From: an uncultured Bacillota bacterium | GTDB lineage: Bacteria; Sysuimicrobiota; Sysuimicrobiia; Sysuimicrobiales; Segetimicrobiaceae | DNA length: 64,000 nt | Direction of reading: 5' to 3' | Assembly (NCBI GenBank): GCA_963804645.1 | Contig: CAWDRG010000017.1 | Span: 544,001 to 608,000 of the forward strand | Position numbers and translations under genes: made by a program | The notes under the pieces: model-generated | The model's database searches: none | What the model was told of the DNA's origin: nothing | Seen by the model: only the letters and a program-made list of their open reading frames with translations | In this document: positions 15,494 to 43,228 of the stretch, piece by piece | How positions within the stretch are numbered: the first letter of the stretch is position 1 | How the letters are laid out: every line of letters begins with the position of its first letter

Positions 15494-15500
15494 CGCGTCG

Positions 15501-18498: not shown

Positions 18499-18791
18499 GA
18501 GCGTCCCTCCGGCGCCGACGGTTTCTTCTTCGAGAGATACGCGAGCTGGTAGTAGTCCGCGAACGCCATCGCGGGAAAGATCTGGATGCTCACGACATCG
18601 GTCCACGGCGCGGTGATGCGCGCCAGCGCCTCCGCGGACTCCGCTTCGGCGATGATCACGATGCGCTGCTGGCCGAGCAGCTGATAGTGCCCGAGCACCT
18701 TCACCCCTTCGGGGCGCGTATAGTGCTCGAAGCGCGCGAAGAGCCGATCGCGGGTCTCCATCGTATAGTCCTCGATCATCACAAACAGCAT
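18495..18791 (-). CDS. Small ferredoxin-like-fold protein (DUF3303/GYD/muconolactone-isomerase-like)
   Basis: GGAGG RBS; MLFVMIEDY...PEGVKVLGHY...IVIIAEAESAEAL...PWTDVVSIQIFPA (98 aa). Confidence 0.7.
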   Translation of the reverse strand: MLFVMIEDYTMETRDRLFARFEHYTRPEGVKVLGHYQLLGQQRIVIIAEAESAEALARITAPWTDVVSIQIFPAMAFADYYQLAYLSKKKPSAPEGRS

Positions 18792-19325: not shown

Positions 19326-19709
19326 CTAGGTCCGAGTCGCACGCACCGGCACGCTCACCGTCTCGTGCAAGCGCTCGGCGGCGCGGCGCACCCCGCTCAG
19401 GTTCTCGACCACACGGGCAAACACGCTCACCTTTCCGAACGGCACCACGTCGCCGTAGAACAGGCAGAGCGTCTGCATGTCCGGGAAGTACCCGATATCC
19501 CCCGTGGACACCGAGAGCACCTCGTTCTCGGGATCGGCGACGAAGGGCAGCATCACGATCATCTCGCCCCCGGCGAACTTCGCATGGATCGCGAAACTGT
19601 CGAGCGGGAGGCACTCGGCAAACCGTTTGGCGATGCCGGGTGCCTGCACATCCAGCAGCTCGCACACCGCCCGTTCCTCCCCGACCGTCAGGACAAACCG
19701 CTGACCCAT
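19326..19709 (-). CDS. DUF3830 / cyclophilin-like beta-barrel protein
   Basis: GAGGAGGT RBS; ELLDVQAP...LPL...HAKFAGGE...PEN...GDIGYF...LCLFYG...VSVFARV (127 aa). Confidence 0.78.
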   Translation of the reverse strand: MGQRFVLTVGEERAVCELLDVQAPGIAKRFAECLPLDSFAIHAKFAGGEMIVMLPFVADPENEVLSVSTGDIGYFPDMQTLCLFYGDVVPFGKVSVFARVVENLSGVRRAAERLHETVSVPVRATRT

Positions 19710-19819
19710 CTCGCTGACCTCCTCTGCGCCTCCGCCGGTCGGATCCGCCGCGCCGCGATCGTGCCGACCACGCATGCGACCCGGCGGGCGGTCCCCGGCG
19801 TCCCCGCACGCGAAGCCCG

Positions 19820-20926
19820 TCAGGCGAGAAACCGCGCCGGACGGAACGGCGCGAGGCGCACATCCTGGCGGCCTCGGATGATCTCGTCCGCCACAAGCGC
19901 GCCGAGGTGCGGCGCCAGCGTGACGCCGCTGTGCGTGACGACAAGGTAGTATCCGGCGACCCCGGGAAACGGCCCGACGGCCGAGTAGCCGTCCGCCGGG
20001 ATCGGACGGATCCCGAGGCGGACCGCCTCCGGCCGTACCCCGGCGATGCTCGGCAGCAGGCGGGCGGCGCGCGCCACGAGCTCGACGGACGCCGCAGCCG
20101 ACGGCCCCGGCTGAGTCTCCACCGTAAGGGCGTCGTCGACCTCGTGGCTGGCAATCACGAGACGTCCCGCGCCGTCGGGCCGGAGGTGGCACTCCGGCGC
20201 CCGCAGGAGATGCTGGACCCGCGCCGGCACCGGCGGGGTCAGGGCCAGCAGCCCGGCCGTCGGCGCGAGCGGGATGTCCAACCCCGCGGCGGCGGCCACC
20301 TCGCTCGCCCACCGTCCGGCGCAGTTCACCACGACGTCGGCGCCGTGGGCGCGGCCGTCGGCGGTCGTCACGCCGACGACCCGGTCGCCGTCGCGCCGGA
20401 GCGCGCGCACCCGCGACCCCGTGCGCAGCCGCCCGCCCGCGCGCGCCGCCGCCTGGATCAGGGCGTGCGCGTACACGACCGGGTCGATCCAGCCCTCCTC
20501 GGGAAAGTACGCGATCGTGGCGTCGGCCACGACGGCCGGATCGACGTCGGGCTCGAGCTCGCTGAACCGGCGGGCCGAGATCTCCTCGGCGGCGTACTCC
20601 CACGCGCACAGCCGCTCGATCCGCTGCCGCAGCGCCGCGCGGGGCGCCGCATCGGTGGCCCACTCGAGACTGCCGCCCCCGTGCAGCCACGGCGCGTCCC
20701 CAAACTCCTCCCGGAGCGCCGCGTGGGCGCGCATGCCGCCGACGTTGAGATCGTGGTAGGCGCGTGGCGGCTTGTTGTTCGCGTTCGTCCAGGCAAAGGT
20801 TGCCGACGACGTCCCGCCGGCGACGGTCCCGGCCTCCAGAATCGTCACCGCGGCGCCCGCCCGGGCGAGCCGATAGGCGACGGACGCGCCGACGACGCCG
20901 GCGCCGATCACGAGAATCTCGGTCAT
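19820..20926 (-). CDS. FAD-dependent oxidoreductase, DAO/glycine-oxidase family
   Basis: VIGAGVVG, GTSSATFAWTN, RPIPADG, VTHSGVTLAP, FRPARF. Confidence 0.92.
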   Translation of the reverse strand: MTEILVIGAGVVGASVAYRLARAGAAVTILEAGTVAGGTSSATFAWTNANNKPPRAYHDLNVGGMRAHAALREEFGDAPWLHGGGSLEWATDAAPRAALRQRIERLCAWEYAAEEISARRFSELEPDVDPAVVADATIAYFPEEGWIDPVVYAHALIQAAARAGGRLRTGSRVRALRRDGDRVVGVTTADGRAHGADVVVNCAGRWASEVAAAAGLDIPLAPTAGLLALTPPVPARVQHLLRAPECHLRPDGAGRLVIASHEVDDALTVETQPGPSAAASVELVARAARLLPSIAGVRPEAVRLGIRPIPADGYSAVGPFPGVAGYYLVVTHSGVTLAPHLGALVADEIIRGRQDVRLAPFRPARFLA

Positions 20927-20957
20927 CTGTCCACCTCCGCGCGCCCCGTCCGCAACC

Positions 20958-22496
20958 CTACGGCATCCATGACGCCGCCGCGATCCGCAGCATGTAGTCG
21001 TCGCGGGGGTGCCAGACCAGCATCTTGTCCGTCGCGTCCACGTTCGGCGCGGCGACCAGGGGAATCGCCGGCGCCTCCTGCAGGAACAGCATCTCGGCTT
21101 TCCGGTACAGATCCTTCGCCTGCGCCGGGTCCGCGAGGATATCCGCGGCCCCGAGGTACTGCGCGAACTGATCCGGCGAAGTCGCCCACAGCGAGACGGA
21201 TCCGTCCGCGGTGAACGTCCGCTCGGCGATGCCGCCGGCGTACCCGACGAAATCCGTGACGCGCATCCACGTCGCCTCGTACGGCAGCTTGCGCCCCTCG
21301 ACCTGGTCGACGAGGAGGACGCCGTAGTCCTCGGTCACGACCTTGGCCCGGACGCCGACCTTGCTCAACTGATCGGCGACGTTCAGCGTTGTGTCACGAT
21401 CCGCCGGAAACTGCCCCGTCATGGTCGCGATCGTCATGTCGAATCCGTTCGGATAGCCCGCATCTTTCAGCAGCTGCTTGGCGCGCGCCGGATCGTACGG
21501 AAAGCCCAGCACCGTCGTATCGCACCCCAGGCTGATGGCGCTGCAGAACGACGTCGCCGGGGCGACGGCGCCGTGCATGATGCCCTGCGCGATCGCGGTG
21601 CGGTCCACGGCCATGTTCAGCGCCTGCCGCACGCGCACGTCCGCGATCGGCCCCTTCGGGTTCACCAGGTTGAACAGGATGTAGTAAATCCCGGTGCTCG
21701 ACGCCTCCACGAGCTGCAGCCGCGGCGTTCGCTGGATCACCGCGTAATCGTCCGGCGGCACGTCGTTGATCACGTCCACCGACCCGGACAGCAGCGCCGC
21801 CAGCCGCGACGCCTGATCGGGAATCGTGCGGATAAAGGCGTGCGTGATCTTCGGCCGGCCCCCCCAATACGCGGGGTTCGCCTCCAACTCGACGTGGTCG
21901 TCCTTCGCCCAGCTCACGAACCGGTACGGCCCGGTCCCCACCGGATGCTTCGCGAGCGCGTCTTCGCCGTTCTGCGCCACGTACTGCGGCGGCAGCATCA
22001 TGCCGTAGTACGCGAGGTACGACGGCAGGAGCGGCCACGGCTGCGCCGTCGTCATCCGCACCGTCAGGTCGTCGACCACATCCACGGACTTGATCCCGCG
22101 GAGGAGCCCCGCCCCGGGCCACCGCGTCTTCGGATCCAGGGCGCGGCCGATCGTGAACTTGACCGCCGCCGCGTTGAACGGCTCGCCGTCGTGGAACTTC
22201 ACGCCCCGCCGCAGCTTGAACTCCCACACCGTCGGCGCCACCATCGTCCAGGACACCGCAAGCCCCGGCTGCAGCCGCAGGGTCCGGTCCCGGTCGATCA
22301 ACCCGTCGTAGATATTGCCGAGGACGTTGTACGTCAGCGTCGAAACGACTTTCTGCGGATCGCCCGTCAGCATATCCGACCCCTGCGCCACGGTCACGGT
22401 GTCCGGCGCGTGCGCCGCGAGTCCGCTCGGCGCTCCCGCGGCGAGCAGCCCCCCGAGCGCCGCCGTCACCACCGCTCCCACGCACCACCGCTTCAT
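20958..22496 (-). CDS. Family-5 ABC solute-binding protein (DppA/GsiB-like, group B)
   Basis: ATG at 22496 with signal peptide; LQPGLAVSW, WEFKLRRGVKFHDG, PVGTGPY, DVRVRQALNMAVDR. Confidence 0.92.
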   Translation of the reverse strand: MKRWCVGAVVTAALGGLLAAGAPSGLAAHAPDTVTVAQGSDMLTGDPQKVVSTLTYNVLGNIYDGLIDRDRTLRLQPGLAVSWTMVAPTVWEFKLRRGVKFHDGEPFNAAAVKFTIGRALDPKTRWPGAGLLRGIKSVDVVDDLTVRMTTAQPWPLLPSYLAYYGMMLPPQYVAQNGEDALAKHPVGTGPYRFVSWAKDDHVELEANPAYWGGRPKITHAFIRTIPDQASRLAALLSGSVDVINDVPPDDYAVIQRTPRLQLVEASSTGIYYILFNLVNPKGPIADVRVRQALNMAVDRTAIAQGIMHGAVAPATSFCSAISLGCDTTVLGFPYDPARAKQLLKDAGYPNGFDMTIATMTGQFPADRDTTLNVADQLSKVGVRAKVVTEDYGVLLVDQVEGRKLPYEATWMRVTDFVGYAGGIAERTFTADGSVSLWATSPDQFAQYLGAADILADPAQAKDLYRKAEMLFLQEAPAIPLVAAPNVDATDKMLVWHPRDDYMLRIAAASWMP

Positions 22497-22579
22497 CCCA
22501 CGCCCCCTTCCGACCGCGCTCCCCGGCGTTGGGCGCATTCCGGCGCGCGCGTCCGCGCTGCGCGACCCCGGACGCACGA

Positions 22580-24322
22580 TCACCAGCCGACCGCGTACGC
22601 CAGACGGCGCGGATCCGCGCCGCCGGCCAGCGTCCGCTCTGCCGAGTTCCGCACAACGGCGCACAGCGCGCCGGCCTTCGGCGTCCACTCCGGCCACGTC
22701 TCGACCCGGTGGCCGAGATCGGCGAGCTCGGCGCGGACGGTCTCCGGAATGCGCCCCTCAACGCTGAGCTGCCCCGGGCTGTACGGGTGCGGATGCGAGG
22801 TGGACGGGAAGTTGTAGCTGACGACCCGCGGGTGCTCGATCGCCTCCTGGGCTTCCATCCCGTGGTCGATGATGTTCACAAGCAGCTGCACCATGGCCTG
22901 CGGCTGCGCGTCGAGCCCGGGCGAGCCGTACACCATGAACGTCTCGCCGTCCTTCACGACGAGGCCGGGATTGGGAGACAGACGCGGCCGCTTCCCCGGC
23001 GCTACGCTCGACGGGTGGTCGGGATCCAGCCACGACTGATGGCCGCGCGGCGAGATGATGAAGCCGAGTCCGGGGACGATCGGCGTATCGCGGGCCCCGT
23101 CGCTCGGCGTCGCCGAGAACGCGTTCCCCTCCGCGTCCAGCACGCACAGATAACTCGTATCCGGCGGCACCGCGCCCCCCCGCGGCCGGGGCCGCCCGGC
23201 CGCCATCGCGGGCTTCCGGACCCCGGACTGGTACGCCCAGGGATCTCCGGGCGCCGGCATCTCGCCGGCCGCGCGGTCCATCCGGATCCGCCGCCGCCAC
23301 GCGTCCGCATACCCCTTGGACAGCAGGCCCTCGATCGGCACCGGCACAAACCGCGGGTCCCCGAGGTACGCGTGCCGGTCCGCGAACGCCGCATCGAGCG
23401 CCTCGACGATCAGGTGGAGCGCCCGCGCCGAGTTGTGCGGGATCGCGCCCATGTCGTATCCCTCGAGAATCGTCAGCGCCTGCAGGGCGACCGGCCCCTG
23501 GCACCACGGGCCGCACCCGTACACCTCGTATCCGCGATAGGTCGCGCGAATCGGCGGCTCCACTTCGACCGAGAATTCCGCCATATCCTCGGCAGTCAGC
23601 AGCCCGCCCTGCTCCTGGCAGAACCGCGCGGTGCGCTGCGCGATCTCGCCCTTATAGAAGAGGTCCCGCGCCGCCCGGAGGCCGGCGTGACGGCCCACTG
23701 CTCCGCGCTCCGCCGCGGCGAGCATCCGGAAGGTGCGCGCGAGATCCTTCTGCACGTAGCGCTCGCCCGGCTTCGGCGGCCGGCCGCGGCTCAACAGCAC
23801 CTCCCGCGACGAGGGCCATTGGCCCACCTTGTCGGCGATCCGCGCGATGTTCGCCGCGAGGAACTTGTTGACCGGAAACCCCTGCTCGCACAGCTCGATC
23901 GCGGGCGCCGCGACCTCGGCAAACGACATCGTCCCATAGCGGTCCAGCGCGGTGATCCAGGAGTCGATCGCGGACGGCACGACGGAGGCCAAGATGCCCG
24001 ACGAAATGTCGTTGCCGCGCCGCCGCAGTTCCTCGAGGGTGGCGGCCTTCGGCCACCATCCCAGGCCGCTGATCGTCGCCACCTCGCCGGTCCGCGCCAT
24101 GCGCAGCACGATCGGCGCGACCCCGCCGATGTTGGTCAGGTCGAACTGCAGGACGTTGATGCACAGCCCTGTCGCGACGCCGGCGTCAACGGCGTTGCCG
24201 CCGCGCTCCAGGATCTTGGTCCCGGCCATACTCGCGAGATAGTGCCCCGAGGACACCATGTAGTTTGACCCCAAGAACGACGGGCGTCGCGTGCTGAGCG
24301 ATTCCATCTCAAATCCGATCAT
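22580..24322 (-). CDS. Gamma-glutamyltransferase-family Ntn hydrolase
   Basis: GGNAVDAG, FYKGEIA, AFADR, DTSYLCVLDAEGN (Thr nucleophile), PGKRP, GGADPRR; GGAGGTG RBS. Confidence 0.92.
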   Translation of the reverse strand: MIGFEMESLSTRRPSFLGSNYMVSSGHYLASMAGTKILERGGNAVDAGVATGLCINVLQFDLTNIGGVAPIVLRMARTGEVATISGLGWWPKAATLEELRRRGNDISSGILASVVPSAIDSWITALDRYGTMSFAEVAAPAIELCEQGFPVNKFLAANIARIADKVGQWPSSREVLLSRGRPPKPGERYVQKDLARTFRMLAAAERGAVGRHAGLRAARDLFYKGEIAQRTARFCQEQGGLLTAEDMAEFSVEVEPPIRATYRGYEVYGCGPWCQGPVALQALTILEGYDMGAIPHNSARALHLIVEALDAAFADRHAYLGDPRFVPVPIEGLLSKGYADAWRRRIRMDRAAGEMPAPGDPWAYQSGVRKPAMAAGRPRPRGGAVPPDTSYLCVLDAEGNAFSATPSDGARDTPIVPGLGFIISPRGHQSWLDPDHPSSVAPGKRPRLSPNPGLVVKDGETFMVYGSPGLDAQPQAMVQLLVNIIDHGMEAQEAIEHPRVVSYNFPSTSHPHPYSPGQLSVEGRIPETVRAELADLGHRVETWPEWTPKAGALCAVVRNSAERTLAGGADPRRLAYAVGW

Positions 24323-24400
24323 CTCTCGCCACCTCCGCCCTGCCTCCCTCTCCGTGGGACCCATCCGAGCTCGACGCCGCGGTGCCCCCCGATCGCCCCG

Positions 24401-25945
24401 TCACTTCCACGACGCGTCGTGCATGATCAGCAGCAGGTCCGCCCGCGGCGTCCACTCCAGGTCGCGATTCATCCCGTTGGCATTGGGCGCCGTAAAGAGC
24501 GGAATCGCCGGCGCGTCGGCCTTGAACAGCATCTGCGCCTGGTGCAGCAGCGCCTTGATCTTGGCCGGGTCCGCCGCCTGGTCCGCCTCGTCCAGCAGAC
24601 GCTCGTACTCCGGATCGGCGGGCGACCAGGACGCGACCCCGCCCTGCGTGGTGAAGTTGGCCTCGCCAATCTCGCCCGCGTCGCCCCAAAAGCTCGTGTG
24701 CCGGAACAGGGCGGCGTCGGTCGTCAGCTTCTTGGTCACGAGCTGCTGCACAAGCACGCCGTAGTCCACGATCATCGGCCGGGCGCGCACGGCGACCCGG
24801 CTGAGCTGGTCCGCGAGCGCCACGGTCAGGTCGCGGTCTCCGGGATAGGCGCCCGACGACGTCGCCATCGTCATGTCGAACCCGTTCGGGTACCCCGCCT
24901 CGGCGAGCAGCGCCTTGGCGCGTTCGGGATCGTACGACCACTGCGCGATCGGCGAATCGCAGGCGAACTGCAGCGTCGTACAAAAGGTCGCGATCGGGGT
25001 CCCCGCGTCGTGCATGATGCCGGTCAGGAGCGCCTTCCGCGCGACCGCGTAGTTCAGCGCGACGCGCACCCGCTTGTCCGCGAGCGGCCGGTCCGCGGGG
25101 ATGTTGACGAGATTGAAGTGCAGAAAGAACATCGACAGGCTGGTGCCCTGCACCAGCTTGAGGCGCGGCGAATGCTGGATGGGCTCGAAGAGATCGGGAG
25201 GGATCAGATTGATCACGTCGACCGACCCGGCGAGCAGCTCGGCGAGCCGGGCCGAATCGTTCGGGATGACGCGGACGATGACGTGGGTGATCTTCGGCCG
25301 GCCCCCCCAGTAGTCGGCGTTCGCGGTGAGCTCGACGTGATCGTCCCGCACCCACTGCACCAGCTTGTAGGGCCCGGTCCCGATCGGATGCTGCACGAGC
25401 GCGTCGTCCCCGTTCTTCGCGAGATACGCCGGTGGCACGATCCATGAGGTCACCGCGAGACGCTGCAGAAAGGTGGCCGGGTCGATCGGCCGCGGCGTCA
25501 CGATGCGCACCGTGCCGGGGTCGACCGCAATCACCGAGCTGATCGGAGGATACCAGAGCGCCCGCGACCAGTGCTCCACCGGACTGAGCCCGCGCTCGAT
25601 CGAAAACTTCACGGCCTGCGCGGTGAGGGGCTCCCCGTCCTGGAATCGCACGCCCGGCCGCAGGGTGAACTCCCAGGTCGTGGGGTTGACCTGCGTCCAC
25701 GACACCGCGAGCCCGGGCACGAGGTGCAGGTTCGCGTCGCGGTTGAGCAGCGTTTCATAGATGTTGGCGAGCACGTTGGCGCCGTAGGTCGACGTGGTAC
25801 GGTGCGGATCGCCGTTCGTGATATCCGTGCCCTGTGCGATCACCACGGTGTCCCGGGCCGCGGCGGCCATCCCCGTCGTCGCACCGAGACCCGCGACCAG
25901 CGCCCCAATCACCACCCCGATGCCGATCGATCGCCAGCCGATCAC
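24401..25945 (-). CDS. Family-5 ABC solute-binding protein (group B)
   Basis: Signal peptide, PGLAVSW, WEFTLRPGVRFQDG, PIGTGPY; collinear with 20958-22496. Confidence 0.92.
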   Translation of the reverse strand: MIGWRSIGIGVVIGALVAGLGATTGMAAAARDTVVIAQGTDITNGDPHRTTSTYGANVLANIYETLLNRDANLHLVPGLAVSWTQVNPTTWEFTLRPGVRFQDGEPLTAQAVKFSIERGLSPVEHWSRALWYPPISSVIAVDPGTVRIVTPRPIDPATFLQRLAVTSWIVPPAYLAKNGDDALVQHPIGTGPYKLVQWVRDDHVELTANADYWGGRPKITHVIVRVIPNDSARLAELLAGSVDVINLIPPDLFEPIQHSPRLKLVQGTSLSMFFLHFNLVNIPADRPLADKRVRVALNYAVARKALLTGIMHDAGTPIATFCTTLQFACDSPIAQWSYDPERAKALLAEAGYPNGFDMTMATSSGAYPGDRDLTVALADQLSRVAVRARPMIVDYGVLVQQLVTKKLTTDAALFRHTSFWGDAGEIGEANFTTQGGVASWSPADPEYERLLDEADQAADPAKIKALLHQAQMLFKADAPAIPLFTAPNANGMNRDLEWTPRADLLLIMHDASWK

Positions 25946-25991
25946 GGCATCGTCACCTCACCCGCGCGCCGGGTGCCCATCGCCGGCGCGC

Positions 25992-27771
25992 TCACAGCGT
26001 CGTCACGTACGCTTCGCGGCGCGGATCCGCGCCGCCCATGAACACGCCTCGCTCGGAATCCTTCATCACCATGCACACCCCGCCGGCCGACCAGGACCAC
26101 TTCGGCCATTGGTCGATGTCGTGCCCGCGCCTCCGCAGCTCCGCCACGGTCTCCTCGGGCACGCCGATCTCGACCCGCAGCTTGCCCGGCTCGTACTTGT
26201 GCGGGAACGTCGAGGACGGGAACGAGTACGACGCTACGCGCGCCTGCTCCACCGCCTCCTGCGGGTTCATGCCCCAGCGCAGCACGTTGCTGAGCGCCTG
26301 CGTCATCGCCTGCGGCTGCCGGTCGTTCCCCGGCGACCCGAACGCGATGTACGGGATGCCTCCGCGGCAGACGAGCGCCGGGTTCGGTGTGAGCCGGGGC
26401 CGCTTGCCGGGCGCGACCACGTTGGGATTCGCCGGGTCGAGGCTCGACTGCGACCCGCGCTCCGAGATATGCAGGCCGAGCCCTGGGATCACGGCCCCGT
26501 TGGCGTATCCGTCGCTCGGCGTCACCGAAAACGCGTTGCCGTAGCGATCCATCACGGACAGATAGGAGGTGCCCGAGATCTCATCCCCGGCGGTCGCCGC
26601 CCCGCTCGGCTCGGGCGCCGCTGCGGCGGGACGCGGGTATCCCGGGATGTCCCCCGCCGCCGGCATCTCCGGGCACGCCCGTGCCGGATCGAGGCGCGCG
26701 CGGCGCTCCGCGAGATACGCGGGCGACGTCAGGCGCTCCATCGGCACGTCGATGAACCGGGGATCCCCGCAGTACCGCTCCCGGTCGGCAAATCCCAACT
26801 TGAGCGCCTCGACGATGTGGTGCACCGCATCCGGGCCGTTGTGCGGGAACTGCTCCAGCGGCACCCCGTCGAGGATCCCGTTGGCGATCAGCAGCGCCGG
26901 CCCCTGACTCCACGGCCCGCAGCCGTACAGCTCGCAGCCCCGGTACTCGACGCGCCCGGCCGGCTCCTCGGGCGCCTGGAACGACGCGAAATCCTCCTCG
27001 GACAGAAACCCGCCGTTGTGGCGGGAGTACTCCACCATCGCCTTCGCGATCGGCCCGCGGTAGAAGTAGTCCCGGACCGCGTCGAGCCCCTCTTCCCGCG
27101 TGCGCGCGCGGGCGCGCTCCTCGACCTCGCACAGCGCCCGCAGCGTGTTCGCCAAATCCCGCTGCACCACGATGTCGCCGACCTCCGGGGGCTCCCCGTT
27201 TCGAAGGAAGATCTCGCGGTTCGCCGGATGCCGCCGGTAGCTCTCGACCATCGTCATGATGCTGTGGGCCATGAAGTGATGTACCGGGAACCCCTCCGCT
27301 GCGAGCCGGATCGCGTCCGTCGCCACCTCGGAGAAGCGCATCGTCCCGTAGTTGCGCAGCGCCAGCAGCCACGCGTCCGCCGCCGCCGGCACGACGCACT
27401 TGAGACATGTCCGCCGGGATCTTCCCGCCGCGCTCCCGCACGAAGTAGTCCAGCGTAATCGCCCGCGGGAACGGCCCCACCCCGGCGATCGTCGTCACGC
27501 GGCCCGTCGCCGCGTGGTAGAGAATCATCGGCGCAACGCCCGAGAAGCTGCACATGTCGTTGTGGACCACGTTCAGCACCAGGCCCGCGGCCACGCCGGC
27601 GTCGATCGCGTTGCCCCCCGCCGCCAGCACGCGCAGCCCGGCGAACGCCGCGGCGTAGTGCCCCGCCGCGACCATGCCCCCCGTCCCCATCACCAACGGA
27701 CGCGACATCCGCTGCCGCACCGACCACGTCTTCGCCCCGTACGCGGTTTCCTCGTTCACGCTCAGCGACAT
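25992..27771 (-). CDS. Gamma-glutamyltransferase-family Ntn hydrolase; +1 frameshift at about 27400
   Basis: N-part GGNAIDAG...KIPADMS joins CVVPAAADAW...GTSYLSVMDRYGN...GGADPRR. Confidence 0.88.
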
Positions 27772-27817
27772 GACACCCCTCCTCGTGATGCGGTACGACC
27801 GAACGATGGGCCGCGCA

Positions 27818-29005: not shown

Positions 29006-29107
29006 CGCGTGCCTCCCGCAGGCCCGGGGCGAGGGCGTTCACGTCCTCGCGGTCGGGCGTCCTGTCTTCTCGGCGCGACCCGCGCGCTCCTGGCACCGGG
29101 CGCCGGA

Positions 29108-31666: not shown

Positions 31667-31687
31667 CGATCAACCTCCTCCTCATCC

Positions 31688-33486: not shown

Positions 33487-33493
33487 GAGACGA

Positions 33494-34516: not shown

Positions 34517-34532
34517 CGCCTCACCGTCCCGG

Positions 34533-36068: not shown

Positions 36069-37006
36069 GATGGCCTCCGCCGGATCCCGTAGTAGCGTTC
36101 CCGCGCGGTGACGCGTTCGCGGCGGCGGGACAACCGCGGGACGTGGATCGAGGGCGGCGCACTGCGCGCGCCGCCGTGCAGGTGACGGTCGAACGGCGTC
36201 GGGGACGCGAACTCCAGAAAGAACGGAAACCGGTCGGTCGCGAGCTTCGACTCCACGTACAGCACCGGCCGTCCGGCGGCGGTGTACGAGATTCTCCGCG
36301 TCAGCATCACGGGCATCGCCGGCGGCCGCCGCAGCCGCCGCGCATCGCCGGCCGCAAGCGGGCGCGCCGCGATCCACATCTCCGTGCGGACCACGGCCGC
36401 GCCGACCTGCTGCGCGGCGATCGTGAGAAAGAGTTCCTGCTGCAGGTCCCGCGGCCGCACGCGCCCCGCCATCAGCTGCGCGGGAATCATCCCGACCTCG
36501 AGCGCCGTCGGTGTGTCCCGCACGATCGCGATCCGAGTCGCCCGCCACAGGGGCGTGCCGACGGAGACGTCCAAGATGCGGGCGTGCTCGGCATCGGCGG
36601 GCACCGTCGTGACGTCGACCAGCCGGTGGTGCGCCACGGGCGGCCGCCGCTTGGGGCCGCGCCCGGCGAAGGTCAGCCCGCCGACGCCGAACTGGAACTT
36701 GGGGGCGGCGACATACGTGCCGGCCCCCCGGCGCCGGTAGATCAGCCCCTCACGGGCGAGCTCAGCAAGCGCCGCGCGGACCGTGATGCGGCTCACGCGG
36801 TACCGCGTACAGAGCGCCTGTTCCGTGGGAATGCGGTCCCGAAACTCGCCGCGCGAGATCTTCTGGACGAGGCTGTTGCGGACGTGGAGATACTTGACGA
36901 CGACCGCGGGCTGCGCGGGTGACGCGGCGCTGATCCGCGGCGCCGGCCCGGACCTCGCGGCCGGCGCGCGTTCGGACACAGCGGGCTCGCGCTGCAGTCG
37001 ACCCAT
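36065..37006 (-). CDS. GntR-family regulator, HutC subfamily (HTH + UTRA)
   Basis: GGAGGTG RBS and ATG at 37006; IPTEQALCTRYRVSRITVRAAL...RRRGAGTYV, followed by a UTRA-like C-domain. Confidence 0.92.
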   Translation of the reverse strand: MGRLQREPAVSERAPAARSGPAPRISAASPAQPAVVVKYLHVRNSLVQKISRGEFRDRIPTEQALCTRYRVSRITVRAALAELAREGLIYRRRGAGTYVAAPKFQFGVGGLTFAGRGPKRRPPVAHHRLVDVTTVPADAEHARILDVSVGTPLWRATRIAIVRDTPTALEVGMIPAQLMAGRVRPRDLQQELFLTIAAQQVGAAVVRTEMWIAARPLAAGDARRLRRPPAMPVMLTRRISYTAAGRPVLYVESKLATDRFPFFLEFASPTPFDRHLHGGARSAPPSIHVPRLSRRRERVTARERYYGIRRRPS

Positions 37007-37057
37007 CGACGCACACCTCCGCACCGGTGCGCTGGCGCACGCCGGTGACGCGTGACT

Positions 37058-37069
37058 TTGATATAACAA
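37058..37069. promoter_or_regulatory. Candidate GntR/HutC operator in the divergent promoter region
   Basis: Near-palindrome TTGATATAACAA (one mismatched pair) in an AT-rich patch between the divergent gntR and ggt genes. Confidence 0.55.
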
Positions 37070-37182
37070 CTGTAAATCCTCCTTGGAGGAACTGCGCCCC
37101 ACCGCCCGAACTATTGCCGGGACTTCCATCTGCCCGTGGTGCCGCTTCGCCAACCGAACGGTCCGACAAGGAGGGCGCATCG

Positions 37183-38964
37183 ATGGAGCAACACGCAGAG
37201 ACGATCTATGGCGCGCGCACGTGGTCGATCCGCACGGAGATCGCCCGCCCGCTGGTGATGGGCGTGCACGGCATGGTCTCGGGGGGCCACTATCTCGCCG
37301 CCGCGGCCGGGATGCGCGTGCTCGCCGCCGGCGGGAACGCGATCGATGCCGGCGTCGCCGGCGGCATCGTGTTGAACGTCGTGCACAACGACATGTGCGC
37401 GTTCGCGGGGGTCGCCCCGATCATCCTCTACCACGCCGGCACGAAGCGGGTCACCACGTTCGCCGGAACCGGGACGTGGCCCCGCGCGATCTCCCGCGAC
37501 TACTTCATGCGCGAGAAGCAGGGCCGCATCGGACTGGGCCTGGCCGCGTGCGTCGTGCCCTCCGCGGCCGACGCGTGGCTGTCCGCGCTCCGCCAGTACG
37601 GGACGAAAACGTTCGGCGAGGTCGCGGAGAGCGCGATCCGGATCGCCCACGACGGCTTCCCCGTCCATCATTTCATGGCGCGCAGCATCGGTGGATTTCT
37701 CAATAACTACCGCGCGCATCCGATGAATCGGGAGATCTACCTGCGCAACGGGGAGCCCCCGAAGGTGGGCGACGTCATCGTCCAGCATGAACTCGGCGCG
37801 ACGCTCCAGGCGATGGCGGACGCGGAGCGGAAGGCGCGGGGCACCCGCGAGCACGGCATCGACGCCGCCCGGGATTACTTCTACCGCGGCCCGATCGCCA
37901 AAGCCATGGTCGCCTACTCCAAGACGCGCGGGGGGTTCTTCAGCGAAGAAGACTTTGCGGCGTACGAAGCTCGGGAGGAGGCGGCCCCGCACGTGACCTT
38001 CCGGAACCATGAGGTCTACGGCTGCGGACCGTGGAGTCAGGGGCCGGCGTTCCTCGAGGCGCTCGGCATCCTCGACGGCGTCCCGATGGACGGGGCCGCG
38101 CCCCACAGCCCGGAGGTCATCCACCGGCAGGTGGAAGCGCTCAAGCTGGCGTTCGCCGACCGCGAGCGCTACCTGGGCGATCCCCTCGTGGTGGCGGTGC
38201 CCATGGAGCAGCTCCTGTCCCCGTCGTATCTCGACGCGCAGCGCGCCCGGATCGATCCCCGCCACGCGTATCCGGGCTGTCCCCCGGCCGGGGAGATCCC
38301 GGGCTTTCCCCGCCGCGAGCCGCCACCGCCGACGGGTGAGGTCCCGGTCGTGACGACGCGGACGCCGTCCGCGGACCTCCCAGGCACGTCCTATTTCTGC
38401 GCGATGGATCGCGACGGGAATATCTTCTCCGCGACGCCGAGCGACGGCTACAGCCAGAGCGAGGTCATCCCAGGACTCGGGCTGGCGATCTCCGAACGGG
38501 GCCTGCAGGGCAGCCTCGACCCGAACAACCCGAACGTGGTCGCGCCGGGAAAGCGCATCCGGCTCACACCGAACCCCGCCCTGGTGCTGCGCGACGGCGA
38601 GCCGTTCATGGCGATCGGCTCGCCGGGGGCGGATCGGCAGCCGCAGGCGATGACGCAGGTGCTCAGCAAGATCCTCATCTGGGGGATGAACCCGCAGCAC
38701 GCGGTGGAACACCCGCGGTTCGCCTCGTTCTCATTCCCCCAGGGCGCGTTCCCGCACCAGTACGAACCCCGCAAGCTGCGTGCCGAAGCGGACGTGCCGG
38801 AGGAGGCGGCGGTGCAGCTGCGCGCGTACGGACACGATGTCGAACGCTGGCCGAAGTGGTCGTGGTCGGCCGGCGGCGTCTGCGTCGTCATGCGCGATCC
38901 GGAGCAACGCGTGTTCCTGGGCGGGGCAGACCCGAGGCGCGAGGGGTACGCGGTTGCGGTGTAG
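37183..38964 (+). CDS. Gamma-glutamyltransferase-family Ntn hydrolase
   Basis: AAGGAGG RBS; GGNAIDAG, GTSYFCAMDRDGN, PGKRIRLTPNP, GGADPRR. Close paralog of 25992-27771. Confidence 0.93.
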   Translation: MEQHAETIYGARTWSIRTEIARPLVMGVHGMVSGGHYLAAAAGMRVLAAGGNAIDAGVAGGIVLNVVHNDMCAFAGVAPIILYHAGTKRVTTFAGTGTWPRAISRDYFMREKQGRIGLGLAACVVPSAADAWLSALRQYGTKTFGEVAESAIRIAHDGFPVHHFMARSIGGFLNNYRAHPMNREIYLRNGEPPKVGDVIVQHELGATLQAMADAERKARGTREHGIDAARDYFYRGPIAKAMVAYSKTRGGFFSEEDFAAYEAREEAAPHVTFRNHEVYGCGPWSQGPAFLEALGILDGVPMDGAAPHSPEVIHRQVEALKLAFADRERYLGDPLVVAVPMEQLLSPSYLDAQRARIDPRHAYPGCPPAGEIPGFPRREPPPPTGEVPVVTTRTPSADLPGTSYFCAMDRDGNIFSATPSDGYSQSEVIPGLGLAISERGLQGSLDPNNPNVVAPGKRIRLTPNPALVLRDGEPFMAIGSPGADRQPQAMTQVLSKILIWGMNPQHAVEHPRFASFSFPQGAFPHQYEPRKLRAEADVPEEAAVQLRAYGHDVERWPKWSWSAGGVCVVMRDPEQRVFLGGADPRREGYAVAV

Positions 38965-39000
38965 CCCGGCACCTCACCGGACGGGACCGCCCAGCGTCCC

Positions 39001-40479
39001 GTGAGCGGCGGCGGAAGCCTGCGTCCCGAGGCCTCGGCAGAAGAGACCGCCGGGCTCATCCGGAGCGGCGCGGTGACCTCCACCGAGGTGACGCGGGCCT
39101 GCCTGGACCGCATCCGCGCCCTCGACGGCGCGCACCATGCGTTCATTACGCTCCTGGAAGCGGACGCGCTCGCTGCCGCGGCGCGGGCCGACGACGAGCT
39201 CAGACGCGGACGGTCCGTCGGCCCGCTGCACGGGGTTCCCGTCACCGTCAAGGATGCGTTTCTTCTCCGCGGCACCCCCACCACGATCGGCGCCGTGATG
39301 CTCCGCACCGACGCGCCCGCGGAGAACGACGCCGCGTGCCTGGACCGCCTCAGGGACGCGGGCGCCGTGGTGCTCGGCAAGACCAACGTGGGAAGCGGCA
39401 TCGCGTGGCAGACGGCCGGACTCAGCGCGACGCGCCTGCCCCCCGCGGAGAATCCGTGGCGCCGCGGACGCACCCTCGGCGGGTCGAGCAGCGGGTCCGC
39501 CGTCGCGGTCGCGCTCGGCATGGGATACGCGAGCGTCGGATCGGATTCCGGCGGCTCCGTGCGGAATCCCGCCGCGCTCTCGGGCCTCGTCGGCCTCAAG
39601 CCGACCTTCGGCCGGGTCAGCCAGTACGGCTGCGTATACGGGCTCTGCCGGTCGCTCGAGCATGTTGGCCCCCTCACCCGCACCGTCCGCGACGCGGCGA
39701 TTCTGCTGAGCTGCCTCGCGGGCCGCGATCCGCGGGATCCTACCTCCGCGGACGCGCCGGTACCGGACTACCTGGCTGCGGTCGCCGACGCGGCGCCCGA
39801 GCCGCTGCGGATCGGCTGGTTCTCAGACGGCGGGCCGCTCGGCGCCGAGCCCGACGTCCTGGCGCGCGTCGCCGACGCGACGCGGGTGCTGCGGAACCTC
39901 GGCATGTCGGTCGAGGCGGTACCCGCGCCGGCCGCGGATCCGGAGCTGTGGTATGAGCTCACCCTGTTCGAGGAGGCCGACGCGCTCGACGAGACGGTGC
40001 CGGCCCTGACCGCGTATCAGGAATACGGACGCGCCAACCTTCGCCGGAAACGGGACCGAGTGTCGCGCGCCGCCGCAGCCCGCGCGGCGAACATCCGCAG
40101 CGCCTACGCGGCGCTGTTCTCGCGGTTCGACCTCTTGGCGCTCCCGACCGCCCCGCTCACCGCGACGCCGCTGACCGCGCCGATCCTGCAGTGGAACGGG
40201 TCCGCCCGCGACGCGCTGGACCTGTACCTGGCAAATACGTGGGTGTTCAACCTGACCGGGCACCCGGCGATCACGCTCCCGTGCGGGTTCGACCGCGACC
40301 GCATGCCGGTCGGCATGCAGCTCGCGGCGCGGCACTTCGACGAGGCGCGCCTGCTCGGCGCGGCCGCGAGGTACGAAGCCACGGTCGGACGGTTCCCGCT
40401 GCCCGCCTCCGAGCCGCCCGCTCTTCGTCCCACGGATGGCTCGATCCTGACCACGCCGAATGGAGGGAGTGTCCCATGA
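39001..40479 (+). CDS. Amidase-signature family enzyme
   Basis: GPLHGVPVTVKD (Lys), GGSSSGS, GSDSGGSVRNPA (Ser nucleophile), GLKPT. Confidence 0.93.
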   Translation: MSGGGSLRPEASAEETAGLIRSGAVTSTEVTRACLDRIRALDGAHHAFITLLEADALAAAARADDELRRGRSVGPLHGVPVTVKDAFLLRGTPTTIGAVMLRTDAPAENDAACLDRLRDAGAVVLGKTNVGSGIAWQTAGLSATRLPPAENPWRRGRTLGGSSSGSAVAVALGMGYASVGSDSGGSVRNPAALSGLVGLKPTFGRVSQYGCVYGLCRSLEHVGPLTRTVRDAAILLSCLAGRDPRDPTSADAPVPDYLAAVADAAPEPLRIGWFSDGGPLGAEPDVLARVADATRVLRNLGMSVEAVPAPAADPELWYELTLFEEADALDETVPALTAYQEYGRANLRRKRDRVSRAAAARAANIRSAYAALFSRFDLLALPTAPLTATPLTAPILQWNGSARDALDLYLANTWVFNLTGHPAITLPCGFDRDRMPVGMQLAARHFDEARLLGAAARYEATVGRFPLPASEPPALRPTDGSILTTPNGGSVP

Positions 40480-42098
40480 GCACGCACCGCCACGCCGCGT
40501 GGGCCCTGTTCACGGTGGTCATCGTCGCGGCACTGCTCGCCGGCCTGGCCGGATCCGCCCGGCCGGATGCCGCCCCGCGCCAGGGCGGCGACGCATCGAT
40601 GGCGATCTTCGGCGCGCCCGGGAGCACGCTGCTGCCAGGCTTCCCGCAAACGAACTACGCGGTGACCGTTTACCAGAGTGCGAATCGGACCCTGGCCAGC
40701 TACAGCCCCAACCTTCGAATGCTGCCGGACCTCGCCGACCGGTGGAGCATCGCCGCCGACGGCCGCACCTACACGTTCCACCTGCGCGCGGGGATTCGCT
40801 GGAGCGACGGGACACCGATCACCTCCGGGGACTTCGAGGCCACGGTCCTGCTCCTCTCCGCGAAGGACGCCGCCAGTCCCTGGTTCAACAACGTGGACCA
40901 AATCGTCGGCGCGAAAGACCGCAAAGCCGGGAAAAGTGAGGCGCTCCCGGGGTTCAAGATCGTCGACGCCCAGACGTTCCAGGTCACCACCGAGACGCCG
41001 TCGGCCACGTTCCTGGACCTGTTCGGGACCGAGATGATCCCCCTCCCCGCGAAGCAGATCACCGGCACCCCGCCGGTCGCGCTGCTGAAAAGCGATTTCG
41101 CGAGGGTCCCCTCGGTGTCGTCCGGCCCGTTCTACATCACCGGGTATCAAACGGATACGCTCGTCACGATGGCGCGGAATCCGTATTACTACGCCCGGCG
41201 CCCGGCCCTCGACCACGTCTTCATTAAGATCCTCAGCCCGGAGACCGGCATCGCGGAACTCGAGCGGGGCGAACTGCAGGTCGCGCCCGGCGAGGCCAGC
41301 GGCGAAGTGCCGCCCGGGGAGGTGGCCGCCCTGAAGCAGGACCCCGACGTCACCGTCACCACGTACCCCAACATCGACGTCGTCGCCATCGCCCTGAACC
41401 TCAAGCACCCCCCGCTCGACGACGTGCGGATCCGTCAGGCGATGATGTACGCGATCGATCGCCCGGCGATCGTCGCGACCGTGCTGCTGGGCATGGCGCA
41501 GGTCGCGTACTCGCCGTTCGTCTCGTTTGCGCCGTACTACGACCGCTCGCTGAACCCATACGCGCGCAACCTCGACCGCGCGCGCGAACTGATGCGGGAC
41601 GCCCACTACGATCCGAACACCCGCCTCCGGCTCCTCATTCCGACCGGCGACAGCACGCTCACGGCCGCCGGGACCGTCGTCCAGCAGATGCTGCAGCAGG
41701 CCGGGTTCACGCTCCAGATCGAGCAGACGGACTTCGCCACCATGGTCGTGCGCCAGCGCACCCACGACTTTGACGTCGCCGTCTCGATCAACCGGGGCTT
41801 CAACAACCCCGATCTGAGCCGGCGGTTTTCCACCAATGCGATCACGTCGGGAGTCAACTATGGTCAGTACTCCAATCCGGAGCTCGACCGTCTGCTCGAC
41901 CAGGCGCGCGAGACTCCCGTCCTGTCGCAGGCGACCCCGTCGCTCGACAAGATCCAGGAGATCCTCAACCGCGATGTGCCGGTCTTGCTGCTCTACTACC
42001 GGGACTCGATCGGGGCCGTCAACACCAAGCAGCTCGGCGGCGCGATCCCACGGTTCGGCGGCGTGCACCGCGACATGGCCGACTGGTACCTGAAATAG
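40476..42098 (+). CDS. Family-5 ABC solute-binding protein (paralog group A)
   Basis: ATG at 40476; GGDASMAIFGAPGS and YYRDSIGAVNTKQLGGA are shared with the genes at 10264 and 15501. Confidence 0.93.
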   Translation: MSTHRHAAWALFTVVIVAALLAGLAGSARPDAAPRQGGDASMAIFGAPGSTLLPGFPQTNYAVTVYQSANRTLASYSPNLRMLPDLADRWSIAADGRTYTFHLRAGIRWSDGTPITSGDFEATVLLLSAKDAASPWFNNVDQIVGAKDRKAGKSEALPGFKIVDAQTFQVTTETPSATFLDLFGTEMIPLPAKQITGTPPVALLKSDFARVPSVSSGPFYITGYQTDTLVTMARNPYYYARRPALDHVFIKILSPETGIAELERGELQVAPGEASGEVPPGEVAALKQDPDVTVTTYPNIDVVAIALNLKHPPLDDVRIRQAMMYAIDRPAIVATVLLGMAQVAYSPFVSFAPYYDRSLNPYARNLDRARELMRDAHYDPNTRLRLLIPTGDSTLTAAGTVVQQMLQQAGFTLQIEQTDFATMVVRQRTHDFDVAVSINRGFNNPDLSRRFSTNAITSGVNYGQYSNPELDRLLDQARETPVLSQATPSLDKIQEILNRDVPVLLLYYRDSIGAVNTKQLGGAIPRFGGVHRDMADWYLK

Positions 42099-42157
42099 CA
42101 TGCGGCGCGACACCGAGGCATCGCGCCGGACTGTCTCGCGATGAAGGGGGCACGCAT

Positions 42158-43228
42158 ATGAGCCAACTGACGATCGGCGTCATCGGCGCCGGCAACGCGG
42201 GGCTGGCGATGGCCGCCGATATGGCGACGCGCGGCCACCGGATCCTGGCGATCTACGACAGCGACCCGGCGGCGGTGCGCGCGGTGACGACTCGCGGCGG
42301 CGTCGAACTCGTCGGGCCGCTGCTCTCGGGCGTCGTTCCGTTGATCGCGACCGGCGTGCTCGAGGACGCGGTGAGCGAGGCCGACGTCGTCTTCGTCATG
42401 GTCCCGGCCACCGCGCACGCGGCCGTGGCCGAGGCGCTCGCGGGGATGATCCGCCCGTCGCAGACGATCGTCGTCTGCCCCGGCTACGTGGGGAGCACGC
42501 TCCTGTTTCGGCGGGCGATGCGGCGCCGCGGCGTCGAGGCGCTGCCGGGCCTCATCGAGACGACGACGATGCCGTTCGCGGCCCGGCTCGTGGCGCGCGG
42601 ACAGGTGGGCGTCAAAGGCATCAAGAAAGCGCTGCACCTCGCGGCGCTGCCGAACACCGACACCGCGCGCGCGGTCGCGCTCCTGCAGCCGGCCTTCCGG
42701 CCGCGCCTGATCGCCGCGGCGAACGTGCTGGAGGCCGGCTTCAACAATCCGAACGCGATCGGGCACGTCCCGCTGACGGTCATGAACTGGGGCCGCATCG
42801 AAGGCGAGACGTTCTCGCGGCACTTCGACTACCACGACTGGATCTCACCCGGCATCCACCGGGTGTCCGAGGCCCTGGACGCGGAGCGCACGGCGGTCAT
42901 GCGCGCGCTCGGCCTGCGTCCGGTGAGCCACGAAGAGTTTACCGCACTGAGCTACGATGCGAAGTGGGAGATCGTCGACGCGAAGGAAGAGGTCCCGCCG
43001 TCGAGCTGGACGATCCCTCCCAGATTCTTGGATGAGGACGTGCCGTGCGGGCTGGTGCCGATCAGCTCCATCGGCGCGCAGGCGGGAGTCCGCACGCCGG
43101 TCACGGACGCCCTGATCGCCCTCGCCAGCCTCTCGCGCGGGACAGATTTCAGGCAGGCCGGAAGGACCGCCGAGGCCCTCGGGCTCGGGGGGTTGTCGGC
43201 TGACCAGATCACGGCGCTCGTCAGCTAG
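42158..43228 (+). CDS. NAD(P)-dependent opine (octopine/nopaline) dehydrogenase family
   Basis: IGAGNAG Rossmann motif, VPATAH, CPG, NNPNAIGH, LDAER, RFLDEDVPCGLVP, TPVTDALI, GRT. Confidence 0.9.
   Translation: MSQLTIGVIGAGNAGLAMAADMATRGHRILAIYDSDPAAVRAVTTRGGVELVGPLLSGVVPLIATGVLEDAVSEADVVFVMVPATAHAAVAEALAGMIRPSQTIVVCPGYVGSTLLFRRAMRRRGVEALPGLIETTTMPFAARLVARGQVGVKGIKKALHLAALPNTDTARAVALLQPAFRPRLIAAANVLEAGFNNPNAIGHVPLTVMNWGRIEGETFSRHFDYHDWISPGIHRVSEALDAERTAVMRALGLRPVSHEEFTALSYDAKWEIVDAKEEVPPSSWTIPPRFLDEDVPCGLVPISSIGAQAGVRTPVTDALIALASLSRGTDFRQAGRTAEALGLGGLSADQITALVS

Follow-up and report, generated by a model that had tools for sequence, protein, structure and literature searches.

A mosaic island of importer, hydrolase and opine-type enzyme genes with a split McbB-fold pair in an uncultured Sysuimicrobiota bacterium

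The question raised by positions 19,326 to 43,228 of a 64,000-nucleotide stretch of DNA from an uncultured Bacillota bacterium (GTDB Sysuimicrobiota; assembly GCA_963804645.1, contig CAWDRG010000017.1, positions 544,001 to 608,000; hereafter the window) is whether the genes for opine-type enzymes gathered there serve the uptake and breakdown of opine-like or aminopolycarboxylate compounds, as an earlier note on this DNA had proposed. All the enzyme families named in that note were found in the sequence, i.e. an opine dehydrogenase (ODH), two flavoenzymes of the DAO family (DAO1 and DAO2), a paralogue of argininosuccinate lyase (ASL) and ethylenediaminedisuccinate (EDDS) lyase, and a cucumopine-synthase-like pair, the helical half of which lies just outside the start coordinate of the span. 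As stated there, these families act on secondary-amine links, and three chemically different routes of C–N cleavage are encoded, namely by the NAD(P)-dependent ODH, the FAD-dependent DAO proteins and the lyase. Genes were called in this ~70% G+C DNA by third-position GC and then scanned with Pfam and NCBIfam. The uptake and hydrolysis genes are packed on the minus strand from ~37.2 down to 10.3 kb and on the plus strand at 37.0–43.2 kb. Left unnamed in the note were, inside the span, three γ-glutamyltranspeptidase (GGT; G_glu_transpept) genes, two Peptidase_M19 genes, an amidase, five solute-binding protein (SBP; SBP_bac_5) genes and a GntR/UTRA regulator, as well as an amidohydrolase below it. 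Family-5 binding-protein genes amount to five in the span and eight in the window, which also holds three permease pairs; two of these were likewise unnamed, the pairs being located within the span (31688–33486) and just below its start (13628–15493).

The explanation preferred here, with a probability of about 0.55, is a chromosomal nutrient-scavenging island of at least four modules that imports and dismantles small N-linked amino-acid conjugates, the secondary-amine bonds being cleaved in three ways. Module A, the conserved core, would consist of the HutC-type GntR regulator, DAO2, GGT2, DAO1, the split McbB-fold enzyme, a DUF3303 protein, the amidohydrolase, a binding protein, two permeases and an isochorismatase-like hydrolase; module B, which runs divergently from the regulator and is conserved as well, of GGT3, the amidase, a binding protein and the ODH, with both modules presumably coupled through the shared regulator. 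Modules C (a binding protein, two M19 dipeptidases, two permeases and the C–N lyase) and D (two binding proteins and GGT1) would be insertions in this genome. Every module appears to be built round a family-5 binding protein of the Dpp/Opp/opine type. Conjugates would be bound outside the cell and imported with the help of ATPases encoded elsewhere, their amide and γ-glutamyl bonds would be hydrolysed, and the remaining secondary-amine bonds would be cleaved by the ODH with NAD(P), by a DAO enzyme with FAD or by the lyase through elimination of fumarate, the split McbB-fold heterodimer beside DAO1 possibly handling a cucumopine-type adduct of an amino acid and an oxo acid. If this is true, peat and soil bacteria far from Agrobacterium keep dedicated gear for opine-like secondary-amine conjugates, and these compounds serve as nutrients more widely than crown gall alone would lead one to expect.

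Opine dehydrogenase, DAO flavoenzymes and lyase

The ODH of 356 amino acids scored 102.5 bits with the Octopine_DH family, the Pfam gathering score being 30, and its gene starts 60 nt after the stop codon of the SBP_bac_5 open reading frame (ORF) of SBP3, directly behind a binding protein as had been described. It could be aligned over its full length (residues 4–353) to the Arthrobacter enzyme 1BG6 (E 4.6e-51), the only other matches in the PDB, where three distinct sequences were listed in all, being scallop octopine dehydrogenases (E ~1e-9). A Rossmann motif, GAGNAG, of the GxGxxG/A type occupies residues 10–15, and His203, Arg289 and Asp294, counted from the alignment, coincide with His202, Arg292 and Asp297 of 1BG6, which we take to be the functional residues of that enzyme. 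The His–Asp dyad is described as conserved among ODHs (PMC10787698). With its catalytic dyad intact, the ODH is thus a sound member of the CENDH/ArODH-type PF02317 family, a new member of a known family whose reaction is predicted only and which, in the preferred explanation, would run in the catabolic direction. An orthologue (84% identity) was found among 40 relatives only in the sister genome G004, which belongs to the same genus and is 65% complete, the genome under study (G000) being 96.8% complete. Paralogues with 33–41% identity from the same taxonomic order stand beside genes for hydantoinase/IclR, PF13941 MutL, MR_MLE, PrpD, M24/creatinase, isochorismatase and luciferase-like proteins, with no common theme. 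Elsewhere in the genome a second Octopine_DH gene (G000:C9:815176-816228; 152 bits), 36% identical to the ODH of the window, lies in DNA with a local G+C of 0.62.

The two DAO-family genes are likewise present as reported. DAO1 matched PDB entry 7fgp_A best, over its full length (E 8.6e-91), with a glycine oxidase next (2.2e-23); it is accordingly far closer to 7FGP, deposited as 'Glycine/D-amino acid oxidase', than to any glycine/sarcosine oxidase. For DAO2 the best match was 1y56_B (118.5 bits), which entered the PDB under the name sarcosine oxidase and is the β subunit of a proline dehydrogenase from an archaeon. Flavin-dependent opine dehydrogenases (OdhABC, i.e. NoxABC/OoxABC) are described in PMC6733357 and PMC8087989 as having the genes for the A subunit and the [2Fe-2S] C subunit in tandem with that for the B subunit. 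Both DAO1 and DAO2 belong, as B subunits do, to the DAO family, but no ORF for a ferredoxin-type or second FAD subunit was found beside either of them, the spacers measuring 32–111 nt; DAO1 is flanked by SBP1 and by the barrel gene of the split pair, DAO2 by the lyase and GGT2. Lacking A and C subunits, the two genes therefore fall outside the flavin opine dehydrogenases. Stand-alone relatives of the DAO family do oxidise secondary amines.

The gene of the fumarate-eliminating lyase family, also correctly recognized earlier, is read as two ORFs, one of which holds Lyase_1 positions 47–258 and the other positions 260–306 together with ASL_C2, and it retains the catalytic-serine loop SSIMPQKKN (S-x2-M-x2-K-x-N). 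Against the NCBIfam argH model its two pieces scored 202 and 141.6 bits, each under the cut-off of 279.5. Since a true argH of 575 bits is present on contig C1, the lyase of the window is a new paralogue and not the housekeeping enzyme. Its N-terminal half scored 148.5 bits with the ASL of Thermus thermophilus, 118 with EDDS lyase and 97–104 with the ASLs of Escherichia coli and animals, which places it at a roughly similar distance from EDDS lyase and from true ASLs. PDB entries 6G3D–6G3I were grouped as one identical sequence, 6RX8 being also placed in the EDDS-lyase group; 6G3H, 6RX8 and 6RXA are given as EDDS lyase in PMC6973171. It is fair to infer that the lyase would eliminate fumarate from an N-substituted aspartate. 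Together with the ODH, this EDDS-lyase-like paralogue may be considered a candidate C–N bond-forming biocatalyst.

The split McbB-fold pair

The cucumopine-synthase-like pair proved to be real and consists of a β-barrel gene followed by a helical-bundle gene. The barrel protein is 85–94% identical in three other aligned assemblies, and in all four the enzyme has the two-gene form, with a spacer of 13 nt on the short-read metagenome contigs L025 and L026, so that it is not a single polypeptide. When the long ORFs of L019 and L017 were compared with the barrel protein by BLASTP, no fused form emerged, separate barrel genes being then found upstream. Searching a collection of 5.8 billion clusters with the helical protein gave 12 proteins at E <= 0.001 (10 of 151–172 amino acids and one of 122), and a profile of 11 helical relatives reached the helical domain of KslB (E 1.7e-5). 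An exhaustive profile search of 1.84 billion representatives returned 92 clusters, 37 with 145–180 residues, 18 with at least 280, 16 in between and 21 shorter. Among the 18 long forms, 12 carry a DUF3830/cyclophilin-like N-terminal domain; P0089 has the domain order of KslB, P0018 and P0022 have no Pfam match, and in P0017, P0021 and P0036 the helical domain is joined to a different, non-cyclophilin N-terminal domain, representing a third architecture. One family member, P0094, scores 51 bits with Cucumopine_C. The best fused form is P0016, the N-terminal half of which is 64% identical to the barrel protein of the window and which matches the helical profile with E 3.4e-46.

The family is small. 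Across the phylum the helical family was found only in the genus g1, in 5 of 94 genomes; when sequence collections were scanned with two peptide patterns and the helical profile, genome contigs gave only the metagenome-assembled sister genome (1 of 199 pattern matches) and metagenome contigs two close relatives among the matches listed (2 of 596). A second split pair, 26–31% identical to the first, occurs elsewhere in the genus, in G001, G002 and G006. In G001 (L033, G001:C75 6972-12336) and G002 (L034, G002:C79) it stands after a binding protein and a permease and before a PALP enzyme and a dehydrogenase of the ornithine cyclodeaminase (OCD) family, with IclR and hydantoinase A/B genes divergent from it; the pairing of PALP and OCD genes resembles SbnA/SbnB, which make diaminopropionate via an N-carboxyalkyl intermediate. 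In G006 the pair follows a DAO gene, the short contig showing nothing else upstream. Among plasmids, tblastn with P0016 gave two weak matches (E 6e-4 and 1e-3), one of them a fused homologue with 25% identity (E 1e-3), annotated as hypothetical, at 8902–9759 of a Neorhizobium sp. NCHU2750 plasmid (L036), where the neighbouring genes (pdhABC-like, proC-like, a GntR regulator and livKHMGF) form a catabolic-looking setting. Importer genes thus accompany the family in three of the four contexts inspected, i.e. the operon of the window, the G001/G002 operon and the weak Neorhizobium match, the G006 context showing only the DAO oxidase.

The fold was approached through P0016, in which barrel and helical bundle are both present in one chain. 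Its model (predicted local distance difference test score, pLDDT, 88.3; predicted template-modelling score 0.86) matched McbB (3X27) along its entire length, in Foldseek with E 4e-12 and template-modelling scores of 0.74/0.71, and its superposition on McbB (VIA) gave Z 28.1 with a root-mean-square deviation of 2.7 Å over 273 of 309 residues in the same domain order; the barrel matches residues 179–317 of KslB (Z 18.5). Structure-based identity to McbB and KslB is 15–18%. AlphaFold prediction of the barrel protein alone from four sequences reached a pLDDT of only 42.8 and was not used. The two halves encoded in the window are predicted to bind each other, with a complex score of 0.71 compared with 0.02 for the best control, at least 86% of contacts agreeing between runs and the partners having pLDDT of at least 86; 116 of 157 solved complexes and 2 of 215 mismatched pairs attain the mark applied to this score, counts that are only rough for the custom alignments used here. 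One glutamate is invariant in the family (Glu49 of the window protein, Glu55 of P0016), and PMC12012969 gives KslB Glu274, located in the barrel domain, and McbB Glu97 as the catalytic glutamate. The models suggest that the pair folds and works like an McbB-type enzyme, its strict membership of PF18631 falling short of proof.

The split enzyme is the most unusual element of the locus and its most useful lead, belonging to a small family that exists in both fused and split form. It could bring to light, for a fold that interests biocatalysis, a reaction running in a new direction or a new class of substrates.

Importers, modules and rival explanations

The direction proposed in the earlier note, uptake and breakdown, is supported by the importers, the HutC-type regulator (its helix-turn-helix beginning at residue 97 of the ORF), the many amide hydrolases, the lack of a nicotianamine synthase (NAS)/CntL-like gene, and the lack of nonribosomal peptide synthetase (NRPS), polyketide synthase (PKS) or exporter genes among the scanned ORFs of 10–55 kb; opine specificity is not supported by the binding proteins, which are about equally distant from DppA-type peptide binders and the opine-lactam binder AgaA. 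As already noted for the window, no NAS-like gene is visible, PF03059 having no match in the whole 96.8%-complete genome, while a control search matched 1 of 14 genomes. Two transporter genes of the major facilitator type are found at 7389–10103. Matches to oligo_HPY, the Opp/Dpp ATPase domain, number 22 in the genome and all lie outside the window (e.g. G000:C17:474655-475938), the nearest Opp/Dpp-type ATPase pair being ~68 kb away on the same contig.

Several observations weigh against the scavenging of opine-like conjugates. No substrate can be named from the sequence. The binding proteins score about equally with DppA (119–122 bits), Lmo0135 (111–142) and AgaA (98–104), SBP3 for instance having DppA (122) and AgaA (104) as its closest solved structures; their top matches are peptide binders (DppA and Lmo0135, and the models GsiB and Opp4A under cut-off), so by similarity they do not appear to separate peptides from opines. 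The commonest enzymes (GGT, M19 and amidase) cut peptide and γ-glutamyl bonds. There is no gene for an ATP-binding cassette ATPase in the window, so the importers must borrow ATPases encoded elsewhere. An ODH orthologue turned up in only 2 of 7 genomes of the genus (counting G000), and, since its paralogues occupy many different contexts, its family neither marks one pathway nor fixes the substrate. The borders of the modules carry no promoter or terminator signal above that of shuffled sequences. As to the split pair, its helical half stays under the Pfam gathering score of Cucumopine_C (14.5 versus 27 bits), the pass of the complex prediction may owe something to solved two-domain relatives that the model has memorised, the catalytic glutamate of McbB/KslB is not mappable, fold searches giving ranges only, and all characterised members of the fold are synthases (PMC12536604 and PMC12012969).

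Much of this would suit the main rival, plain scavenging of peptides, glutathione and γ-glutamyl peptides, in which the ODH, the DAO enzymes and the McbB-fold pair would be side activities on freed amino acids (e.g. D-amino acids, sarcosine or proline-like imino acids). The three GGTs, two M19 dipeptidases, amidase and Xaa-Pro-dipeptidase-like amidohydrolase, a signal of peptide and γ-glutamyl bonds that the earlier note left unweighed, outnumber the opine-type genes, the binding proteins are nearest to DppA, Lmo0135 and the GsiB model, and the DAO proteins match structures of glycine/sarcosine oxidase and proline dehydrogenase. However, the NCBIfam models of peptide binders all remain far under their cut-offs, and this explanation has no role for a CENDH-type ODH with intact dyad as the last gene of an SBP operon, for an McbB-fold enzyme kept between DAO1 and DUF3303 in four assemblies, or for an EDDS-lyase-like paralogue additional to the true argH. 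We consider it unlikely, at roughly one chance in four.

A narrower form of the opine explanation is that the split heterodimer and DAO1, perhaps with the DUF3303 protein and the amidohydrolase, open Pictet–Spengler-type cyclic adducts such as cucumopine- or mikimopine-like opines or carboxy-tetrahydro-β-carbolines, modules A and B then being a dedicated opine-like regulon of an uncultured peat or soil lineage outside Agrobacterium. This is a doubtful proposition; if true, a fold so far met in synthases alone would gain its first role in degradation.

That all genes between 19 and 43 kb act on one complex substrate is improbable. Some 25 genes do stand close together on a single strand, separated by short spacers and with one regulator amid them, and a scan of 17500–37400 gave 0 promoter-like and 8 terminator-like sites (1.1 and 5.5 ± 2.7 in shuffles), all inside genes and hence uninformative on the borders of operons, with no terminator-like sites above chance between the blocks. 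On the other hand, G004 is syntenic at 78–95% amino-acid identity, with GGT3, amidase, SBP3 and ODH on one side and, divergently, GntR (directly before DAO2), DAO2, GGT2, DAO1, the barrel and helical genes, DUF3303, the amidohydrolase, SBP0, two permeases and the isochorismatase-like gene, but its locus has neither SBP2-GGT1-SBP1 (20958–25945) nor the SBPx-M19-permease-permease-M19-lyase block (29108–36060). The lyase has no orthologue in any of the five sister genomes searched, the best match showing 45% identity, and the five binding proteins and two permease pairs point to several ligands. The core gene order recurs on the contigs L025 and L026, GGT standing immediately before DAO1 on L026 as in G004. 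Because of the two blocks missing from G004, the lyase without orthologue and the order GGT-DAO1 on L026, the span is a mosaic and not one pathway, with conserved modules A and B sharing a regulator and with C and D as insertions.

Biosynthesis, in which the ODH and/or the McbB-fold pair would make an opine-type metallophore or a β-carboline-like metabolite and the binding proteins would re-import the product, is very improbable. Characterised McbB, KslB and cucumopine-synthase relatives are all synthases, as are many ODHs (PMC12012969, PMC12536604 and PMC10787698), and in other bacteria opine metallophores are taken up through binding proteins of family 5, but the NCBIfam CntA model matches those of the window only weakly (67–119 bits versus a cut-off of 800). 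The PDB matches of the ODH are 1BG6 and two scallop octopine dehydrogenase sequences, none of them named staphylopine dehydrogenase. The genome is without a NAS/CntL-like gene, no exporter, NRPS or PKS was found nearby, and hydrolases are numerous in the operons, which include a regulator of the HutC type.

The coding sequence changes frame in at least six genes of the window, among them those for the lyase, the amidohydrolase, GGT2, SBP0 and one permease. Contigs of four public peat-metagenome runs from two studies were aligned to 13–31 kb of the window; the best-matching run may be the source sample, so that these contigs are not fully independent evidence. Relative to the window they are one letter short at 14112, 15499, 16544, 17874/17877, 18109/18112, 19310 and 27402/27403 and carry one more letter than the window after 19779, and these single-letter differences coincide with the places of frame change: the permease breaks at 14112, SBP0 at 16544, the amidohydrolase at 17874/17877 and 18109/18112, and GGT2 at 27402/27403, where the extra letter is absent from the contigs of all four runs. 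The lyase break at ~29858 is bridged by three contigs among the matches listed, each with one gap, and is probably an assembly insertion as well. The amidohydrolase (an ORF of 471 amino acids) and the binding protein (636 amino acids) are whole on L025, and GC3 stays at 0.85–0.95 across the breaks. Since short-read contigs are without the extra letters and orthologues are whole, we attribute the breaks to one-letter insertions in the present assembly and regard the genes as intact in nature, a point relevant to anyone annotating this assembly. A decaying region with real breaks, leaving the lyase, the amidohydrolase, GGT2, SBP0 and one permease as pseudogenes, is the least credible explanation, for although so many genes are split and G004 likewise has breaks in DAO2 and the helical gene, the extra letters are missing exactly at the breaks in contigs of all four runs, orthologues are intact on short-read contigs and GC3 is maintained. 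The PALP gene at 4909–6137 is also split over two ORFs and may be another case of insertion.

Table 1. Coordinates of the features of the island in the window
Feature	Module	Position	Strand	Evidence
ODH (CENDH-type NAD(P) opine dehydrogenase)	B	42158..43228	+	Pfam PF02317, 102.5 bits
SBP3	B	40191..42098 (ORF bounds; true start ~40490)	+	SBP_bac_5, E 2e-75
Amidase-signature amidase	B	39001..40479	+	Pfam Amidase, E 9.4e-103; NCBIfam amidase models all under cut-off
GGT3 γ-glutamyltranspeptidase	B	37027..38964 (ORF bounds)	+	G_glu_transpept, E 7.5e-111
GntR/UTRA (HutC-type) regulator	between B and C/A	36065..37180 (ORF bounds)	-	GntR, E 3.5e-16; UTRA, E 1.3e-20
SBPx	C	34533..36060	-	SBP_bac_5, E 1.2e-89 in ORF 34533-36548
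M19 dipeptidase b	C	33494..34516	-	Peptidase_M19, E 1.7e-80
Two ABC permeases (DppB/OppB type, DppC/OppC type)	C	31688..33486	-	BPD_transp_1 + BPD_transp_1_N; BPD_transp_1 + OppC_N
M19 dipeptidase a	C	30611..31666	-	Peptidase_M19, E 2.8e-75
Argininosuccinate/EDDS-lyase-family C–N lyase paralogue	C	29108..30614	-	Lyase_1 + ASL_C2 over two frames
DAO2 flavoenzyme	A	27818..29005	-	DAO, E 6.8e-68
GGT2	A	25992..27771 (two ORF pieces, 25992-27392 and 26581-27771)	-	G_glu_transpept
SBP2 (24401-25945), GGT1 (22580-24364), SBP1 (20958-22697; ORF bounds)	D	20958..25945	-	Pfam; best NCBIfam match GsiB, under cut-off
DAO1 flavoenzyme	A	19820..20926	-	DAO, E 9.1e-57
β-barrel (cyclophilin-like, DUF3830) half of split McbB-fold enzyme, 127 aa	A	19326..19709	-	DUF3830, E 9.4e-11; Cyclophil_like2, E 6.6e-8
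Helical-bundle (Cucumopine_C-like) half of split enzyme, 164 aa	A	18818..19312 (extra letter at 19310 discounted; raw ORF 18818-19342)	-	Cucumopine_C, 14.5 bits, E 0.043; PDB 9k0a, E 8e-4
DUF3303 small protein, ~99 aa	A	18495..18791 (ATG at 18791)	-	PF11746, E 9.3e-17; 100-aa orthologue on L026
Amidohydrolase, Caulobacter Xaa-Pro-dipeptidase-like (under cut-off)	A	17192..18606	-	Pfam/NCBIfam
SBP0 (15501-17139) and two permeases (14543-15493, 13628-14540)	A	13628..17139	-	Pfam; intact 636-aa SBP on L025
Isochorismatase-family hydrolase	A	12938..13624	-	PF00857, E 2.3e-42; syntenic in G004
FmdA/AmdA-family amidase (~11976-12900) and further family-5 SBP (10264 to ~11900)	adjoining A, same strand	10264..12900	-	Pfam scan

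A 549-residue ORF at 34513–36162 without Pfam or PDB match was considered as a novel protein and rejected, its translation being Arg/Ala/Gly/Pro-rich out-of-frame text over the SBPx gene. Directly downstream of the island, a further uptake cluster at 43256–54878 encodes two proteins whose match to neutral ceramidase is confined to its N-terminal part, two permeases, a binding protein, a DoeB/AstE-like deacylase (258.6 bits, under cut-off), a class-III aminotransferase and a pair of MR_MLE enzymes, of which one passes the galactonate-dehydratase cut-off (382.9 versus 311 bits). At the other end of the window, the Hfq match of a 470-residue ORF (302–1714) is confined to its last 60 residues, and the ORF has probably been called too long in this high-GC DNA, a normal hfq gene following it.

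Relation to known systems

The opine catabolic regions of Agrobacterium Ti and Ri plasmids (noc, occ and sac/lec) share with the locus import dependent on binding proteins and an oxidoreductase of the DAO family, and hydantoinase A/B and an OCD-family gene stand beside the paralogous split pair of G001 and G002, the resemblance being loose. In contrast to those regions, the window is without a three-subunit NoxABC/OoxABC enzyme, its binding proteins are of family 5 and not of the polar-amino-acid type, its regulator is of the GntR and not the LysR type, and the region is chromosomal with many extra amide hydrolases. According to PMC6733357, Ti plasmids also carry an NAD-dependent odh gene of unclear role.

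With the N-(1-D-carboxyethyl)-L-norvaline dehydrogenase of Arthrobacter sp. 1C (CENDH/ArODH; 1BG6), which is catabolic and inducible, the ODH has in common its length, the two-domain build, the Rossmann motif and the His/Arg/Asp positions; it differs in being well diverged in sequence and in standing last in a GGT-amidase-SBP operon. The lyase belongs to the same aspartase/fumarase subfamily as the EDDS lyase of Chelativorans sp. BNC1 (6G3D–6G3I, 6RX8) and the ASLs, with Lyase_1, ASL_C2 and the serine loop, but compared with EDDS lyase it is nearer to the T. thermophilus ASL, and its gene neighbours include two M19 dipeptidases and an importer.

In the parts consulted of the literature on PF18631, DUF3830, DUF3303 and cucumopine synthases, no split or catabolic form was found, nor any split McbB-fold enzyme encoded within an importer operon alongside a flavin oxidase. 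The barrel and helical-bundle architecture is common to the pair and to McbB (3X27), KslB (9NS6, 9K0A) and the cucumopine/mikimopine synthases (PF18631 Pictet–Spenglerases, 'type III opine synthases'), whereas the version in the window is made of two genes and resides in an importer operon beside a DAO oxidase, not on transferred DNA (T-DNA) or in a biosynthetic cluster.

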